Positions 14,674 through 50,938 of a stretch of 64,000 bases of DNA are shown in pieces (position 1 is the stretch's first letter; the number at the start of each line of letters is the position of its first letter). The notes below the pieces were generated by a model, which ran no database searches, was not told the DNA's origin, and was given only the letters and a program-made list of their open reading frames with translations. A program made the position numbers and the translations under genes. Source of the stretch: Escherichia coli (GTDB lineage: Bacteria > Pseudomonadota > Gammaproteobacteria > Enterobacterales > Enterobacteriaceae); the NCBI RefSeq assembly GCF_003018255.1, contig NZ_CP027440.1. The stretch is one strand, 5' to 3'.

Positions 14674-16053
14674 ATGCCGCCTGGCGTCGCGGTTTGTTTT
14701 TCATCTCTCTTCATCAGGCTTGTCTGCATGGCATTCCTCACTTCATCTGATAAAGCACTCTGGCATCTCGCCTTACCCATGATTTTCTCCAATATCACCG
14801 TTCCGTTGCTGGGACTGGTCGATACGGCGGTAATTGGTCATCTTGATAGTCCGGTTTATTTGGGCGGCGTGGCGGTTGGTGCAACGGCGACCAGCTTTCT
14901 CTTTATGTTGTTGCTGTTTTTACGCATGAGCACCACCGGGCTGACTGCACAGGCTTATGGTGCCAAAAATCCTCAGGCATTAGCCCGTGCGCTGGTGCAA
15001 CCGTTGCTGTTGGCGTTGGGGGCTGGGGCGTTAATTGCGCTGCTGCGTACGCCGATTATCGATCTGGCGCTGCATATTGTTGGCGGTAGTGAAGCAGTCC
15101 TGGAACAGGCGCGACGCTTTCTTGAAATCCGCTGGTTAAGCGCACCGGCGTCGCTGGCGAATCTGGTATTACTTGGTTGGTTACTCGGCGTGCAATATGC
15201 CCGTGCGCCAGTAATTTTGTTAGTGGTCGGCAATATCCTCAACATTGTGCTGGATGTCTGGCTGGTGATGGGGCTGCATATGAACGTGCAGGGCGCGGCT
15301 CTGGCAACGGTTATTGCGGAATATGCAACATTGCTGATTGGTCTGCTAATGGTGCGTAAAATCCTCAAACTACGCGGAATCTCCGGCGAAATGCTGAAAA
15401 CAGCCTGGCGAGGAAACTTCCGTCACTTGCTGGCGCTTAACCGCGATATCATGCTGCGCTCGCTGTTGCTGCAACTCTGTTTCGGCGCGATCACTGTACT
15501 TGGCGCGCGACTGGGGAGTGACATTATCGCTGTTAACGCGGTTCTGATGACGCTACTCACCTTTACCGCCTATGCGTTGGATGGTTTTGCCTACGCGGTT
15601 GAAGCACATTCCGGTCAGGCATACGGTGCGCGCGACGGTAGTCAATTGCTGGATGTCTGGCGGGCAGCGTGCCGCCAGTCGGGGATCGTAGCGTTACTGT
15701 TTTCGGTGGTTTATTTGCTGGCAGGGGAACACATCATTGCGTTGCTGACGTCGTTAACCCAGATTCAGCAGCTGGCTGACCGCTATCTTATCTGGCAGGT
15801 GATTTTGCCGTTGGTCGGCGTCTGGTGTTATCTGCTGGACGGCATGTTTATAGGCGCAACGCGTGCCGCCGAAATGCGTAACAGTATGGCGGTGGCCGCC
15901 GCAGGTTTTGCGCTGACGCTCCTTACGCTGCCGTGGCTGGGGAATCATGGTTTGTGGCTGGCGTTAACCGTCTTTCTGGCGTTACGCGGGCTTTCTCTGG
16001 CGGCTATCTGGCGGCGTCACTGGCGTAACGATACCTGGTTTGTCGCAACGTGA
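14674..16053 (+). CDS. dinF: MATE-family efflux protein DinF
   Basis: 459 aa polytopic membrane protein immediately downstream of lexA. Confidence 0.93.
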   Translation: MPPGVAVCFSSLFIRLVCMAFLTSSDKALWHLALPMIFSNITVPLLGLVDTAVIGHLDSPVYLGGVAVGATATSFLFMLLLFLRMSTTGLTAQAYGAKNPQALARALVQPLLLALGAGALIALLRTPIIDLALHIVGGSEAVLEQARRFLEIRWLSAPASLANLVLLGWLLGVQYARAPVILLVVGNILNIVLDVWLVMGLHMNVQGAALATVIAEYATLLIGLLMVRKILKLRGISGEMLKTAWRGNFRHLLALNRDIMLRSLLLQLCFGAITVLGARLGSDIIAVNAVLMTLLTFTAYALDGFAYAVEAHSGQAYGARDGSQLLDVWRAACRQSGIVALLFSVVYLLAGEHIIALLTSLTQIQQLADRYLIWQVILPLVGVWCYLLDGMFIGATRAAEMRNSMAVAAAGFALTLLTLPWLGNHGLWLALTVFLALRGLSLAAIWRRHWRNDTWFVAT

Positions 16054-16168
16054 CGGTTAAAAATTCTGAATAAATAATCCTAAGCCAAATTGCTGACTAC
16101 ACTTAATCTCACGTTCAGAAGAAAAGTGAACGTACTCTCATTCACAACCTAACGATGAGGTCTTGATT

Positions 16169-16378
16169 ATGAATAAAGATGAAGCCGGCGGTAACTGGAA
16201 ACAGTTTAAAGGTAAAGTGAAAGAGCAATGGGGCAAACTGACCGATGATGATATGACGATCATTGAAGGAAAACGTGATCAGTTAGTGGGTAAAATCCAG
16301 GAACGCTACGGTTATCAGAAAGATCAGGCAGAAAAAGAGGTTGATAGTTGGGAAAAACGCCATGATTACCGCTGGTAA
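16169..16378 (+). CDS. yjbJ: CsbD-family stress protein YjbJ
   Basis: ORF track 71 aa; ATG at 16169 (MNKDEAGGNWKQ) gives known 69 aa. Confidence 0.85.
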   Translation: MNKDEAGGNWKQFKGKVKEQWGKLTDDDMTIIEGKRDQLVGKIQERYGYQKDQAEKEVDSWEKRHDYRW

Positions 16379-16419
16379 TTAATCCCTCCTGCCCGACATG
16401 TACAAGGATGTACACCCTT

Positions 16420-16935
16420 TTAGCGAGGTTTCTTTTTCACCTGAATAGAGTGGTCATGATGGCACTGTTCGGGATGACGACACGCTTCTACTTCTACACA
16501 TGCTGAACATAATCCATGTGCTTCAATAACATTATGCCGCAGGGCAAAACCCATTTTTGCCGCCAGCGTATGCATGATGTCTTCCACGCCTTCAGCACAT
16601 TCTTCTTTCACCGCGCCGCAGCGATCGCAAATAAACATGGCTGAAGTATGGGTGGGCTGATCGAACAGATGACAGAGCACATAACTGTTGGTGGATTCCA
16701 CCTTATGCACAAAACCTTGTTCAAGCAGAAACTCCAGCGCGCGATAAACCGTTGGCGGCTTGGCTTGCGGTTCAGCTTCGCGCAGCAAATCAAGCAGATC
16801 ATAAGCACTGATAGCGCCATCCTGCAGACTCATCAGGCGCAACACTTCGAGACGCTGTGGGGTCAGGCGCACATTACGCTGTGCGCAGATTTTTTCAGCC
16901 TGCGCTAATAACTCCTGCGTTGTGGTCTTTTCCAT
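16420..16935 (-). CDS. zur: zinc uptake regulator Zur
   Basis: ORF track 228 aa; start set at MEKTTTQELL giving known 171 aa. Confidence 0.9.
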   Translation of the reverse strand: MEKTTTQELLAQAEKICAQRNVRLTPQRLEVLRLMSLQDGAISAYDLLDLLREAEPQAKPPTVYRALEFLLEQGFVHKVESTNSYVLCHLFDQPTHTSAMFICDRCGAVKEECAEGVEDIMHTLAAKMGFALRHNVIEAHGLCSACVEVEACRHPEQCHHDHSIQVKKKPR

Positions 16936-17090
16936 TGGGCACCTCGACAGTGGGGTTAAGAATGTCCTTACTTTACCATAGTTCTCACTTAAACGCCGAG
17001 AACAGGGTGTCATGGCTGTCACATTGCCTGATCGCATATTCGTTATGCTATAGTAGCGCCCCCAATTTACCAGATGCTTAAAAAGTCGCC

Positions 17091-18086
17091 ATGCCAGCAG
17101 AATCACACACTGTTTATCCCGCTTACCGTTTCTCGATTGCCCCGATGCTCGACTGGACGGACAGACATTGCCGTTATTTCCTGCGTCTGCTTTCCCGCAA
17201 TACGTTGCTGTATACCGAAATGGTGACCACAGGGGCGATTATTCACGGTAAAGGTGATTACCTGGCGTACAGTGAAGAAGAACATCCGGTAGCGTTGCAA
17301 CTCGGGGGTAGCGATCCGGCGGCGCTGGCACAGTGTGCGAAGCTGGCAGAAGCGCGCGGATATGATGAGATCAACCTGAATGTCGGCTGCCCGTCTGACC
17401 GGGTGCAGAACGGCATGTTTGGTGCGTGTCTGATGGGTAATGCGCAGCTGGTTGCCGACTGCGTGAAAGCGATGCGCGATGTGGTGTCGATTCCGGTGAC
17501 GGTGAAAACGCGTATTGGCATCGATGATCAGGACAGCTATGAATTTCTCTGCGATTTCATCAACACCGTTTCCGGCAAAGGTGAGTGTGAGATGTTCATC
17601 ATCCACGCACGTAAAGCCTGGCTTTCTGGGTTAAGTCCGAAAGAAAACCGTGAGATCCCGCCGCTCGATTATCCGCGTGTGTATCAACTGAAGCGTGACT
17701 TTCCGCATCTGACGATGTCGATTAACGGTGGTATCAAGTCGCTGGAAGAAGCTAAAGCGCATTTGCAACATATGGATGGCGTGATGGTCGGGCGCGAGGC
17801 GTATCAGAATCCGGGTATTCTGGCGGCGGTAGACCGAGAGATTTTTGGTTCCTCGGATACTGATGCTGATCCGGTGGCGGTAGTGCGCGCCATGTATCCG
17901 TACATTGAGCGTGAACTCAGCCAGGGTACGTATCTCGGCCATATTACCCGGCATATGCTGGGCTTGTTCCAGGGTATTCCTGGCGCGCGGCAGTGGCGGC
18001 GTTATTTAAGTGAAAATGCCCATAAAGCGGGTGCAGACATTAATGTGCTGGAACACGCGCTCAAACTGGTGGCGGATAAGCGTTAA
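17091..18086 (+). CDS. dusA: tRNA-dihydrouridine synthase A
   Basis: 331 aa ORF with Dus-family motifs (APMLDWTD); start per ORF track. Confidence 0.88.
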
Positions 18087-18121
18087 CTTTTCACCAAAAA
18101 GTAGTCAAATTCACCACGCCC

Positions 18122-18146
18122 TGCGCCCCGTCGCGGGGCGTTTTGC
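18122..18146 (+). terminator. intrinsic terminator after dusA (CGCCCCG-TCG-CGGGGCG then TTTT)
   Basis: GC hairpin followed by T-run. Confidence 0.75.
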
Positions 18147-18168
18147 TGTTAAATCAATAGATTATTTT

Positions 18169-18185
18169 TGGCATGATTCTTGTAA
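18169..18185 (+). promoter_or_regulatory. candidate sigma-54 promoter of pspG (TGGCAT-N5-TTGTA)
   Basis: GG-N10-GT element about 35-50 bp upstream of pspG start; resembles the pspA promoter as I recall it. Confidence 0.55.
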
Positions 18186-18219
18186 TGCCAGCAAGAGATT
18201 TCATATTTGGGAGAGCATC

Positions 18220-18462
18220 ATGCTGGAACTACTTTTTGTAATTGGCTTTTTTGTCATGCTGATGGTCACCGGTGTTTCGTTGCTGGGTATTATCGCCGCG
18301 CTGATTGTGGCGACGGCCTTTATGTTCCTCGGCGGTATGCTGGCATTGATGATTAAGTTGCTGCCGTGGCTGCTGTTGGCGGTTGCGGTGGTGTGGGTGA
18401 TCAGGGCGATTAAAGCACCAAAAGTGCCGAAATATCAGCGTTATGACCGCTGGCGTTACTAA
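18220..18462 (+). CDS. pspG: phage shock protein G
   Basis: ORF track 150 aa overlaps dusA; ATG at 18220 (MLELLFVIGF) gives known 80 aa membrane protein. Confidence 0.85.
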   Translation: MLELLFVIGFFVMLMVTGVSLLGIIAALIVATAFMFLGGMLALMIKLLPWLLLAVAVVWVIRAIKAPKVPKYQRYDRWRY

Positions 18463-18597
18463 GGGATTGTGCGGATGATCACAACCTAAGGTTTTATCCT
18501 TAGAACAAAATAGGAATTGATAATCAAATCTGTCATTATTGCGCGTCAAACAAATTCATCGAGCTGTACCCTACATACAGCCGAACTATAAAAGAAA

Positions 18598-18625
18598 GGG
18601 CTTCCCAGGTGGAAGCCCAATTTCT
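18598..18625. terminator. bidirectional terminator between pspG and qor (GGGCTTCC-loop-GGAAGCCC flanked by T-rich runs on both strands)
   Basis: Perfect 8-bp inverted repeat between convergent genes. Confidence 0.75.
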
Positions 18626-18626
18626 T

Positions 18627-19610
18627 TTATGGAATCAACAGGCTGGAACCCTGCGTCGCCCGGCTTTCCAGAATCTCATGCGCACGCCGCGCATCCTTCA
18701 GCGGATATTTCTGCTGCTCGGCGACATCGACCTTAATCACACCGCTGGCAATCAAAGAGAACAGTTCATTACTGGCCTCGGTTAATTCCTCCCGCGTGGT
18801 GATATAGCCTTGCAGGGAAGGGCGTGTCACATACAACGAGCCTTTCTGATTGAGAATGCCTAAGTTCACACCGGTAACCGCACCTGATGAGTTGCCAAAA
18901 CTCACCATTAAGCCGCGGCGTTGCAGGCAATCCAGCGACCGTTCCCAGGTGTCTCTGCCCACTGAATCGTACACCACGCGCACTTTCTTACCACCGGTGA
19001 TCTCTTTTAACCGCTCGACCAGATTCTCTTCACGATAGTTAATAACCTGCCACGCGCCCGCTTTTAGCGCACTCTGCGCTTTTTGCGCGGTTCCTACGGT
19101 GCCGATAAGTTTCGCGCCAAGGGCTTTTGCCCACTGGCAGGCAATCAAGCCAACGCCGCCAGCCGCTGCGTGGAACAGGAACTGCTCATCGGGTTTAATT
19201 TCATAGGTTTTGCGCAGCAGATAATAAACCGTTAAGCCTTTCAGGAAGGATGCCGCAGCTTGCTCAAAAGAAATTGCCGCAGGCAGAATCGCCGCTTTAT
19301 CCGCATTAATGTTATGCACAGAGCTGTAAGCGCCTAATGCCGATTGTGCATAGACTACGCGATCGCCTGCCTTAATATGCTTTACACCACTGCCGACTTT
19401 ACTCACGATGCCTGCCGCTTCGGTGCCTAATCCGCTGGGTAGCGATGGCGGCGGGTAAAGGCCGCTGCGGATATACGTGTCGATAAAATTGATGCCGATG
19501 GCTTTATTTTCGACCTGGATTTCATTCTCCGCCGGATCGGCAGGAGTGAACTCTACGGCTTGAAGTACTTCCGGGCCACCGTGCTTGTGAAATTCAATTC
19601 GTGTTGCCAT
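18627..19610 (-). CDS. qor: NADPH:quinone oxidoreductase Qor
   Basis: ORF track 363 aa; start set at MATRIEFHKH giving known 327 aa. Confidence 0.9.
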   Translation of the reverse strand: MATRIEFHKHGGPEVLQAVEFTPADPAENEIQVENKAIGINFIDTYIRSGLYPPPSLPSGLGTEAAGIVSKVGSGVKHIKAGDRVVYAQSALGAYSSVHNINADKAAILPAAISFEQAAASFLKGLTVYYLLRKTYEIKPDEQFLFHAAAGGVGLIACQWAKALGAKLIGTVGTAQKAQSALKAGAWQVINYREENLVERLKEITGGKKVRVVYDSVGRDTWERSLDCLQRRGLMVSFGNSSGAVTGVNLGILNQKGSLYVTRPSLQGYITTREELTEASNELFSLIASGVIKVDVAEQQKYPLKDARRAHEILESRATQGSSLLIP

Positions 19611-35375: not shown

Positions 35376-37025
35376 ATGGAAATCTTCTTCACCATACTGA
35401 TAATGACCCTCGTGGTCTCGCTGTCCGGGGTGGTCACTCGTGTCATGCCCTTTCAGATCCCGCTTCCGCTTATGCAAATCGCCATCGGTGCGCTACTGGC
35501 GTGGCCGACGTTTGGTTTGCATGTGGAGTTTGATCCTGAACTCTTTTTAGTCTTGTTTATCCCGCCGTTGCTGTTCGCTGATGGCTGGAAAACGCCGACC
35601 CGTGAATTTCTCGAACATGGTCGAGAGATTTTCGGCCTCGCGCTGGCGCTGGTGGTGGTCACCGTGGTCGGCATTGGCTTTCTTATTTACTGGGTGGTGC
35701 CGGGCATTCCGCTGATCCCCGCCTTTGCGCTGGCGGCGGTGCTTTCTCCGACCGATGCTGTGGCGCTCTCGGGGATTGTTGGCGAAGGGCGCATCCCGAA
35801 AAAAATCATGGGCATTTTGCAGGGCGAAGCGTTGATGAATGACGCCTCCGGTCTGGTGTCGTTGAAGTTTGCCGTGGCAGTGGCGATGGGGACGATGATC
35901 TTCACCGTCGGTGGTGCGACGGTCGAATTTATGAAAGTGGCCATTGGCGGTATTCTCGCCGGTTTTGTGGTGAGCTGGCTGTACGGTCGCTCGCTGCGAT
36001 TCCTCAGCCGCTGGGGCGGTGATGAACCCGCGACGCAGATCGTCCTGCTGTTCCTGCTGCCATTCGCTTCTTATCTGATTGCCGAACATATTGGCGTTTC
36101 CGGTATCCTCGCTGCGGTTGCCGCCGGGATGACCATCACCCGTTCCGGTGTGATGCGCCGTGCGCCGCTGGCAATGCGCCTGCGCGCAAACAGTACCTGG
36201 GCGATGCTGGAATTTGTCTTTAACGGCATGGTATTCCTGCTGTTAGGTCTGCAGCTGCCGGGTATTCTGGAGACGTCGCTGATGGCGGCAGAAATCGACC
36301 CTAACGTCGAAATCTGGATGCTGTTTACCGATATCATTCTGATTTATGCGGCGCTGATGCTGGTCCGTTTCGGCTGGCTGTGGACGATGAAAAAGTTCAG
36401 CAACCGCTTCCTGAAGAAGAAGCCGATGGAGTTTGGTTCGTGGACCACACGAGAAATCCTGATCGCGTCTTTCGCCGGGGTGCGTGGGGCGATCACTCTG
36501 GCTGGTGTGCTCTCAATCCCGCTGCTCTTGCCGGATGGTAACGTCTTCCCGGCGCGCTATGAGCTGGTGTTCCTGGCGGCTGGTGTCATTCTCTTCTCGC
36601 TGTTTGTCGGCGTGGTGATGTTGCCTATTCTGCTACAACACATTGAAGTCGCGGACCATTCGCAACAATTGAAAGAGGAACGTATTGCGCGAGCGGCAAC
36701 GGCAGAAGTGGCGATTGTGGCGATCCAGAAAATGGAGGAGCGTCTGGCGGCGGATACCGAAGAGAATATCGATAACCAGCTGCTCACAGAGGTTAGTTCT
36801 CGCGTCATTGGTAACCTGCGTCGTCGCGCCGATGGACGTAACGACGTTGAAAGTTCCGTGCAGGAAGAGAACCTTGAGCGTCGCTTCCGTCTGGCGGCAT
36901 TGCGTTCTGAACGTGCTGAACTGTACCACCTGCGCGCCACGCGGGAGATCAGTAACGAAACGCTGCAAAAATTACTGCACGATCTCGATTTGCTTGAAGC
37001 GTTGCTGATTGAAGAGAACCAATAA
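35376..37025 (+). CDS. yjcE: putative Na+/H+ exchanger YjcE (CPA1 family)
   Basis: 549 aa membrane protein ORF. Confidence 0.88.
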   Translation: MEIFFTILIMTLVVSLSGVVTRVMPFQIPLPLMQIAIGALLAWPTFGLHVEFDPELFLVLFIPPLLFADGWKTPTREFLEHGREIFGLALALVVVTVVGIGFLIYWVVPGIPLIPAFALAAVLSPTDAVALSGIVGEGRIPKKIMGILQGEALMNDASGLVSLKFAVAVAMGTMIFTVGGATVEFMKVAIGGILAGFVVSWLYGRSLRFLSRWGGDEPATQIVLLFLLPFASYLIAEHIGVSGILAAVAAGMTITRSGVMRRAPLAMRLRANSTWAMLEFVFNGMVFLLLGLQLPGILETSLMAAEIDPNVEIWMLFTDIILIYAALMLVRFGWLWTMKKFSNRFLKKKPMEFGSWTTREILIASFAGVRGAITLAGVLSIPLLLPDGNVFPARYELVFLAAGVILFSLFVGVVMLPILLQHIEVADHSQQLKEERIARAATAEVAIVAIQKMEERLAADTEENIDNQLLTEVSSRVIGNLRRRADGRNDVESSVQEENLERRFRLAALRSERAELYHLRATREISNETLQKLLHDLDLLEALLIEENQ

Positions 37026-37042
37026 CGCTTTGGCGGTGTAAT

Positions 37043-37078
37043 CGGTAAAAAGGTGCAGTACATCGCACCTTTTTACCG
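37043..37078. terminator. bidirectional terminator between convergent yjcE and actP (14-bp stem CGGTAAAAAGGTGC / GCACCTTTTTACCG)
   Basis: Long perfect inverted repeat with A/T runs. Confidence 0.75.
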
Positions 37079-37107
37079 TTGGTCAGGTGACCAGAGGCTA
37101 GTGGAGA

Positions 37108-39145: not shown

Positions 39146-39420
<275 letters not shown>

Positions 39421-49840: not shown

Positions 49841-50240
49841 GCCGGGGATATCCACCCGGCAATATGTGGATGCCTGATGCGACGCTTACCGCGTCTTATC
49901 AGGCCTACGCCAGACTGCGCAATAGCTTGATTTAGGGTGATTTTGTAGGTCGGATAAGGCGTTTACGCCGCATCCGACATCAATATCTGATGCGACGCTT
50001 GCCGCGTCTTATCAGGCCTACGCCAGACTGCGCAATAGCTTGATTTAGGGTGATTTTGTAGGTCGGATAAGGCGTTTACGCCGCATCCGACATCAATATC
50101 TGATGCGACGCTTACCGCGTCTTATCAGGCCTACGCCAGACTGCGCAATAGCCTGATTTAGCGTGATTTTGTAGGTCGGATAAGGCGTTTACGCCGCATC
50201 CGACATCAATGCCTGATGCGACGCTTACCGCGTCTTATCA
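49841..50240. repeat. BIME array: about 3.5 tandem 113-bp units of paired REP elements between gltP and yjcO
   Basis: TGATGCGACGCTT recurs at 49875, 49988, 50101, 50214. Confidence 0.92.
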
Positions 50241-50248
50241 GGCCTACC

Positions 50249-50938
50249 TTAACCGTTAGTTAATTTTTCAAACTCTTCACACCCGGTATCAAACCCTTCC
50301 ATACAGCTCAGATTTAACCAGTGCAGCGCCTTTTGTTTGTTCTTCTCGATAAAACCTTCTTCACCGTTTAAGAACATCATTCCCGCCCAGTACTCGGAAT
50401 AACCGGTTCGGGAAATCGCAGAGCTGCGTTTGAAATACCAGGTTGCCTTGTCATCGTCGGCCTTAATGCCCACGCCGTTGGCGTAAATCAAACCAAGCAG
50501 CATTTGGGCATCGACGGCAGAGTCGTTCTCCAGATCTTCCGAGGCGTTTTCTAACAGCGAAATTGCCTTTGGATAATCCGGTTTACCCGCTTGCGTATTT
50601 ACCAGAATATGCGCCAGCGTTACTTCACCTTCTTTACTGCCCGCTTGCGCCGCTTTCTCTGCAAGAACTTTTGCTTGTGGATAGTCCAGACTGACCGGAT
50701 TGGTGATTTTGATCTGCGCTAACAGCGCGCAGGCATCAGCATCACCGCTGTCGGCGGCTTTCTGTGCCCAATATTCGGCTTTGCTCAAATCGCCGGAGCT
50801 AAACCAGCTGTCGGCAAGAAAATATTGTGCGCGTCGGTCCCCTGCCTCTGCTGCCTTTAAATACTGGCTGCCAGGCTCGGAGTCGTTCGCGTGGGCAAAG
50901 AATGTCAAAAACAACATCAATGCGATAATTTTTTTCAT
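50249..50938 (-). CDS. yjcO: Sel1-repeat periplasmic protein YjcO
   Basis: 229 aa ORF with signal peptide. Confidence 0.85.
   Translation of the reverse strand: MKKIIALMLFLTFFAHANDSEPGSQYLKAAEAGDRRAQYFLADSWFSSGDLSKAEYWAQKAADSGDADACALLAQIKITNPVSLDYPQAKVLAEKAAQAGSKEGEVTLAHILVNTQAGKPDYPKAISLLENASEDLENDSAVDAQMLLGLIYANGVGIKADDDKATWYFKRSSAISRTGYSEYWAGMMFLNGEEGFIEKNKQKALHWLNLSCMEGFDTGCEEFEKLTNG

Follow-up and report, generated by a model that had tools for sequence, protein, structure and literature searches.

The zur-dusA interval in the window and in K-12

Two arrangements of zur and dusA are found in Escherichia coli, and the locus analysed here raises the question of which of them is the older and how the one gave rise to the other. 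In K-12 (MG1655) yjbL (b4047) and yjbM (b4048) lie between the two genes. In the stretch of 64,000 nucleotides that we analysed (hereafter the window), the first-pass annotation, made from the sequence alone, had placed divergent zur and dusA starts only about 155 bp apart, with yjbL-yjbM apparently absent and both promoters necessarily sharing the short interval. The ORF coordinates give a gap of 155 bp (Table 1), the PGAP annotation of E2348/69 has the same gap and the same 331-aa DusA, and alignment to K-12 confirmed that yjbL and yjbM are missing from the window. The original interpretation is thus supported, and is refined below with respect to polarity, extent and mechanism.

Both reading frames are intact in the window. 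The start codon of zur is the complement of 16933-16935, the Zur proteins of the window and K-12 are 98% identical, and the sequence context TCGCCATG at dusA is conserved. No ORF of at least 100 aa lies wholly between zur and dusA in the window, and an Rfam scan of 16700-17400 with E values up to 1 returned no element.

Table 1. Features of the zur-dusA locus (window positions unless another record is named; promoter entries are predictions)
Feature	Position	Strand	Basis and remarks
zur	16420..16935	-	ORF, 171-aa zinc uptake repressor; annotated as zur in matching genomes
zur-dusA intergenic region	16936..17090	.	155 bp, divergent genes
Candidate zur promoter, extended -10 TGGTAAAGT	16970..16978	-	Relaxed scan, prediction only
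Native segment replaced in K-12-type genomes	17004..17136	+	dusA promoter, 5' UTR and codons 1-15; blastn breakpoints
Candidate native dusA promoter	17024..17063	+	Relaxed scan and conservation, predicted
Weak -35-like element TTGCCT of the dusA candidate	17024..17029	+	Spacing to the extended -10 element 19 bp
Extended -10 element TGCTATAGT of the dusA candidate	17046..17054	+	
GC-rich discriminator AGCGCCCCC of the dusA candidate		+	
dusA, native N-terminus	17091..18086	+	ORF, 331 aa, ATG at 17091
Unoccupied attB of dusA-specific integrases, ATTGCCCCGATGCTCGACTGG	17136..17156	+	Single perfect match in the window
DUF2713 gene, K-12 (L003)	18322..19307		
DUF2713 gene, L086	3423..4379		
DUF2713 gene, L087	1923..2927		
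DUF2713 gene, L088	3424..4380		

Comparison by blastn showed that the two genomes are otherwise colinear here, with 133 bp of the window (17004-17136) facing 1686 bp of K-12 (L003 18072-19757), and that the K-12 block has a GC content of 34.8%, compared with 52% in the flank. The left breakpoint (17003/17004) leaves 68 bp in front of the zur start codon. On the right, homology with K-12 breaks at 17137, within dusA and 46 nt beyond its ATG, so that the difference extends past the interval 16936-17090 singled out by the first-pass annotation and into the dusA coding region. K-12 lacks the dusA upstream region and the first 15 codons of the window and has different ones instead; its DusA, annotated at 345 aa, starts with MHGNSEMQKINQTSAMPEKTDVHWSGRFSVAPMLDW, unlike that of the window. 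The alignment is best described as a replacement, rather than as a clean gain or loss of two genes.

The replacement is linked to raised divergence. In 250-bp windows, the zur region 16250-17003 is 88.8-94.4% identical to K-12, and the neighbouring genes are ~97-98% identical; dS between the window and K-12 is 0.21 for zur, 0.13 for the body of dusA and 0.07-0.08 for lexA, dinF and qorA. This pattern would fit either an old polymorphism or import from a divergent donor. Two deep allele classes of zur co-segregate with the presence or absence of the K-12-type block, which carries a DUF2713 gene (see below).

An unoccupied attachment site in dusA

dusA is an integration hotspot, where a family of integrases targets a conserved stretch at the 5' end of the gene (Farrugia et al. 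2015, PMC4482086), and the elements that use these dusA-specific integrases supply a new dusA 5' end and promoter (PMC4482086; PMC13136901). The supplement of PMC4482086 lists lysogens of E. coli dusA phages. In the window the attachment core ATTGCCCCGATGCTCGA (17136-17152) has its sole perfect match within dusA, where it covers codons 16-21 (IAPMLD).

An occupied counterpart is seen in BEN5202, which has a ~45-kb lambdoid prophage within dusA. At its attL, native sequence of the window type runs beside zur up to ~17149 and is followed by phage DNA; at its attR, 88 bp separate a tyrosine integrase gene from the 345-aa dusA downstream of it. The free phage mEp460 carries a matching attP, with the integrase gene adjacent to the arm. 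attL and attR share the 8-bp core ATGCTYGA, which reads ATGCTCGA in the window (17145-17152) and falls there within the semi-conserved ATTGCCCCGATGCTCGACTGG; the attB of the window, the attP of mEp460 and the attL and attR of BEN5202 form a consistent four-way alignment with the crossover at this core. The BEN5202-type junction of integrase and dusA was found in 728 of 5426 complete genomes. An integrated element, with integrase, attL and attR, is not present in the window, which has one att copy and contiguous zur and dusA.

A further dusA of the phage type was met on pO177A1 (L005, NZ_CP024617.1), an 89-kb record labelled as a plasmid, where a complete dusA, encoding the BEN5202 protein, and a truncated pspG (2140-3502) lie among phage tail and integrase fragments. 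Its origin may lie in a phage-plasmid, in aberrant excision or in misassembly, and we judged it to be a side issue.

A probable integration scar in K-12

The K-12 block ends in a stretch of 107 bp (L003 19667-19773) with 82-84% identity to mEp460 and to eight other records of the phage collection, these nine matches being eight phage genomes and one Salmonella houtenae contig. Against prophage arms in IMG/VR the identity reaches up to 91%, and the core is the exact point at which the match stops. The same 107-bp arm is homologous to both the attP arm of mEp460 and the attR arm of BEN5202. When the latter was searched with a query running from the integrase to dusA, K-12-type genomes matched from just upstream of the K-12 ATG, and window-type genomes from the core only. 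About 90 bp further upstream, a motif of ~20 bp reads TTATGGTATAGTACCCCG in K-12 and CTATGTTATAGTACGCCAT in the phages, in which it covers the first integrase codons. A tblastn search of the K-12 block with the BEN5202 integrase gave nothing significant, the ~20-bp start-like motif being the only resemblance, and no attL relic or second att copy was found in K-12.

The right junction of K-12 is of the attR type, with an element-derived 5' end of dusA. At least one integrase event shaped the block, because this junction is exact and its arm is homologous to phage DNA; and since K-12 has neither an integrase remnant nor a second att copy, the block would be an integrase-less scar and not an element. 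No att site lies at the left breakpoint, for which a separate deletion or recombination has to be assumed. Four divergent DUF2713 haplotypes that we examined have the two breakpoints in identical positions, which argues for one founding event.

Such a scar can still serve for integration. In O157:H7 N8B7-2 and in ETEC6334 a second prophage sits at the scar, and the K-12-type 5' end has been displaced as a 35-codon dusA fragment that follows the DUF2713 gene. Salmonella houtenae has a comparable scar, again lacking an integrase, with an arm of similar sequence (HWSGRFSVAPMLDW) and another cargo (alcohol dehydrogenase), which suggests that the decay of islands at the dusA site recurs. The order of genes on the Salmonella houtenae contig (L094, AGRM01000005.1, 2016-7041) is zur, STM4242, a foreign zinc alcohol dehydrogenase gene and dusA with the element-type 5' end MLKTSQTSVLSENTDNHWSGRFSVAPMLDW. 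No description of the K-12 yjbLM block as a relic of a dusA island was found in the literature that we searched; reading it as a scar is a straightforward application of the published mechanism.

The DUF2713 gene and the origin of the K-12 block

YjbL and YjbM of K-12 can be aligned over their full length to undivided DUF2713 proteins (318-340 aa) that are intact in most E. coli, so that yjbL and yjbM are the frameshifted halves of one DUF2713 gene. Its allele classes share 49-65% identity at the protein level and 55-79% in the DNA of the ORF, and the non-coding ends of the block are 88-100% identical. Between the classes dS is 0.5-0.73 and dN/dS 0.44-0.53, and a 10-residue repeat of the KDKLDN type near the N-terminus of the protein varies in copy number. 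Close homologues were named almost only from E. coli, with a few distant relatives on IS-rich contigs; a HMMER search of 1.84 billion representatives yielded 27 DUF2713 hits, of which the distant ones lie among IS elements and not at dusA.

The block had no match in the phage collections, and its seven hits in the plasmid collection looked chromosomal, with no genuine plasmid among them. In IMG/VR, 61 of the 68 viral contigs concerned contain DUF2713 as host flank of a prophage call, and the other seven are live integrase-arm-dusA junctions without DUF2713. Hits of PHROG families to DUF2713 were likewise discounted, as they are explained by prophage calls overshooting into host DNA. Across the phage, plasmid and IMG/VR searches, DUF2713 was not found inside intact dusA-specific elements elsewhere. 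As to function, Pfam gave only DUF2713 itself and PADLOC nothing, an AlphaFold model (pLDDT 72) had no fold match in the PDB at an E value of 0.001 or better, and the literature gave zero hits for DUF2713 and listed yjbL/yjbM only as a young operon of unknown function. The DUF2713 gene may have travelled as cargo of the same element that left the arm.

It is on this last point alone that the scar reading differs from its strongest competitor, in which the K-12 block would be an unrelated foreign insertion in the zur-dusA spacer, brought in by illegitimate recombination or by import from another Escherichia lineage, and its end at the att core would be coincidental or the trace of a later, separate phage event that left the arm. 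The exact attR-type junction with its phage-homologous arm is difficult to accommodate in such a history, as is the parallel scar of Salmonella houtenae with a similar arm and other cargo. Its strength lies in the DUF2713 DNA, which has no phage match, in the left breakpoint, which is not an att site, and in the divergence of the linked genes: the dS of 0.21 for zur against 0.07-0.08 for lexA, dinF and qorA, and that of 0.5-0.73 between DUF2713 alleles, hint that a divergent donor contributed the region by homologous recombination. On balance we consider an unrelated insertion improbable, and prefer to read the block as the scar of an integration at dusA.

Ancestral state and frequency of the two arrangements

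The polarity of the change was surveyed with DusA relatives and their flanks, using one genome per species and locating zur in each, which gave 80 loci. None of the 80 surveyed zur-dusA loci has a YjbL or YjbM homologue. The 155-bp gap recurs in E. albertii NBRC 107761 (L006) and in L007, a record that carries the label E. coli but shares only 89.7% identity with the window; over 15500-18500 the two are colinear with the window sequence. DusA residues 1-331 were matched over their full length in E. albertii, Citrobacter, Enterobacter, Lelliottia, Kluyvera and others, and short divergent zur-dusA gaps of 240-480 bp are present in Yersinia, Rahnella, Budvicia, Tatumella and Vibrio. The colinearity of E. 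albertii leads us to take the window state as ancestral for Escherichia and the K-12 block as a derived insertion. The feature in the window is accordingly an ordinary one and already known in kind: the free attB of a known integrase family, still in its ancestral surroundings.

Longer intervals also occur in this family. Citrobacter has a conserved 162-aa ORF between zur and dusA and keeps the native dusA 5' end; Lelliottia has the same ORF together with one of 452 aa, again with the native 5' end kept, and several other Enterobacteriaceae have similar gaps of 2.1-2.2 kb. In the two genera these ORFs were seen at L008 2251-4222 and L010 7402-7890. Both intervening genes are missing from Escherichia. 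The outer-membrane gene STM4242 of Salmonella houtenae occupies the same position as the 452-aa ORF of Lelliottia.

Among 5426 complete E. coli genomes, window 16420-17400 was matched contiguously at an identity of at least 99% in 1044, including E2348/69, and in most of the remaining genomes the match breaks at window 17003. The K-12-type region was covered to at least 80% in 4038 of the 5426 (~74%). For the window as a whole, the best match among complete genomes was 98.8% over 24 kb, and none was close.

These frequencies are what might recommend the reverse history, in which a yjbL-yjbM block formerly present in the window lineage was deleted or excised, so that zur came to adjoin dusA: with ~74% of complete E. 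coli genomes, the K-12 reference among them, carrying the block, its absence looks like the minority state. However, a K-12-type block without integrase and attL offers no route to precise excision, and a deletion cannot recreate the segment 17004-17136, which has its orthologue in E. albertii and whose promoter core has orthologues in seven other genera. The 155-bp gap is moreover shared by E. albertii and L007, and an E. albertii-like identity tract confined to 17004-17136 was not seen, BEN5202 and the window being 99.6% alike across the flank. We therefore regard a derived window as largely refuted and very unlikely. A collapse of the yjbLM region in assembly or sequencing, as the source of the short interval, has nothing in its support except the difference from K-12, and can be given practically no weight, as it is refuted by the same contiguous sequence in the 1044 complete genomes, by E. 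albertii and by the two intact reading frames.

Candidate promoters in the 155-bp interval

The expectation that both promoters are confined to the 155 bp was borne out at the level of prediction, with candidates for zur and dusA and two conserved blocks found there. A strict sigma-70 scan of 16800-17250 found no site; a relaxed scan, in which extended -10 elements and a 19-bp spacer were allowed, gave the two candidates of Table 1. Their prediction rests mainly on conservation. When compared with E. albertii and L007, which are ~10% divergent overall, the interval consists of near-invariant blocks at 16936-16998 and 17020-17090 with a variable patch between them. The candidate zur promoter lies inside the first block and inside the 68 bp that K-12-type genomes retain. 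The core of the dusA promoter, TGCTATAGTAGCGCCCC, ~70 bp away from the zur candidate, is invariant across eight genera, and the upstream -35 region of the candidate is not conserved across them. The invariant stretch can be written TGCTATAGTAGC(G/C)(C/G)CCC, the genera named being Escherichia, Citrobacter, Lelliottia, Kluyvera, Pseudocitrobacter, Pluralibacter and Kosakonia.

The native dusA promoter can be read as a -35-independent promoter of the extended -10 type with a GC-rich discriminator. Stringent and growth-rate control are associated with promoters that combine these two features, and the dusA promoter of the window may be regulated in this way. The replacement in K-12 would swap the dusA promoter outright and probably spares the expression of zur, because the zur candidate lies within the 68 bp that K-12 keeps.

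We found no mapped transcription start sites for zur or dusA. From the candidates, transcription of dusA would be expected to start ~7 nt beyond 17054 and that of zur, on the minus strand, near 16963; for K-12, a dusA start is predicted downstream of TGGTATAGT (NC_000913 4261577-4261585). Autoregulation by Zur was considered and rejected: 17040-17058 resembles half a Zur box, but has five mismatches in 15 positions to the core TGTTATAWTATAACA when compared by eye.

Other differences around the locus

Several further differences were noted along the window. malG (1416-2306, minus strand) comes immediately after psiE (912-1322), with only 1322-1416 at their junction; in K-12, xylE and the region of the sRNA malH sit between the two genes, and xylE appears to be absent from the window, as it is from BEN5202. 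At 9318-9332 the window lacks ~1.87 kb that is present in K-12 (yjbI pseudogene, L003 8534-10401), and at 37025-37104 it lacks ~1.6 kb (yjcF, L003 39630-41250). Tandem copies of a ~125-bp repeat at 39159-39373 and 49947-50258 are 73-91% identical to intergenic repeats of K-12 near malE/malK and lamB/malM, and look like elements of the REP/BIME type. BEN5202 carries ~7.2 kb between qorA and dnaB (L004 27274-34436) that is absent from the window and from K-12, with genes for an FAD oxidoreductase, an MFS transporter, an enoyl-CoA hydratase and a LacI-family regulator and a CoA transferase pseudogene. Several of the closest relatives of the window span ~7.2 kb extra somewhere in this region.

Proposed history and consequences

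We consider it highly probable that the window retains the ancestral, unoccupied zur-dusA arrangement and that the K-12-type arrangement is the scar of a dusA-specific integration. What the data establish in this history is where the features and the breakpoints lie, which state is ancestral, that the K-12 arm is homologous to phage DNA and that the site has been re-used. At the outset, phages like mEp460 would recombine at ATGCTYGA in the attB of dusA codons 16-21. Integration would push the native 5' end of dusA toward zur, and the phage would provide a surrogate promoter and N-terminus beside its integrase gene. In the K-12-type scar the phage-like 107-bp arm would have stayed fused to the body of dusA at the core, with 1.5 kb of AT-rich foreign DNA upstream of it that holds one DUF2713 gene, split in K-12, and both the integrase gene and attL would have gone. 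We infer the order of the deletions, as we do the carriage of DUF2713 by the same element and the positions of the promoters.

A more far-reaching claim is that about three-quarters of E. coli, including K-12, express a phage-chimeric dusA, in which the native promoter and 15 codons have been swapped for the attP arm, that DusA and D20 modification differ as a result, and that DUF2713 acts in conflict; in this full form we hold it to be doubtful. If it were true, the level and regulation of DusA, and hence the D20 modification of tRNA, would differ systematically between window-type and K-12-type lineages, and DUF2713, a hypervariable orphan gene tied to the scar with alleles older than the species, might be selected in conflict, for example for phage exclusion at the hotspot.

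The consequences for the reference strain are more direct. K-12 would represent the derived state, its dusA promoter, 345-aa N-terminus and yjbL/yjbM all stemming from an old integration, and statements on dusA regulation that are based on K-12 may not hold for E2348/69 and other strains of the window type. The segment 17136-17156 would also be open to integration by mEp460-like phages and by the Stx phages that have been reported from the locus. A review lists yjbM, dusA and zur as insertion sites of Stx phages (PMC8065619); these are probably one and the same dusA att site, named after the flanking gene in two backgrounds. For the window itself the finding is of little importance, as it has a common ancestral arrangement of a well-described integration hotspot.

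Comparison with known systems

As in other divergent back-to-back promoter pairs in short enterobacterial intergenic regions, the window has outward-facing extended -10 candidates in two conserved blocks ~70 bp apart. Its interval has neither a Zur-box-like operator nor an Rfam element, and its promoters are predicted ones. The yjbL-yjbM pair of K-12 (b4047-b4048, Pfam DUF2713) occupies the same chromosomal position, between zur and dusA, and is absent from the window. The lambdoid phage mEp460 and the dusA prophages of BEN5202 and O157:H7 share with window 17145-17152 the ATGCTYGA core of their attP, attL or attR sites, whereas none of their phage DNA is present in the window.

The closest parallel is the DAI system (PMC4482086). 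In that system occupied relatives show semi-conserved direct repeats, an integrase gene beside dusA and a 5' end and promoter supplied by the element, whereas the window has an empty attB only, with no integrase and no element. The window site resembles the DAI attB in its location and, in occupied genomes, in the flanking repeats and the adjacent integrase gene; both sites fall in the conserved 5' part of dusA, where the first beta strand (APMLDW) is encoded.
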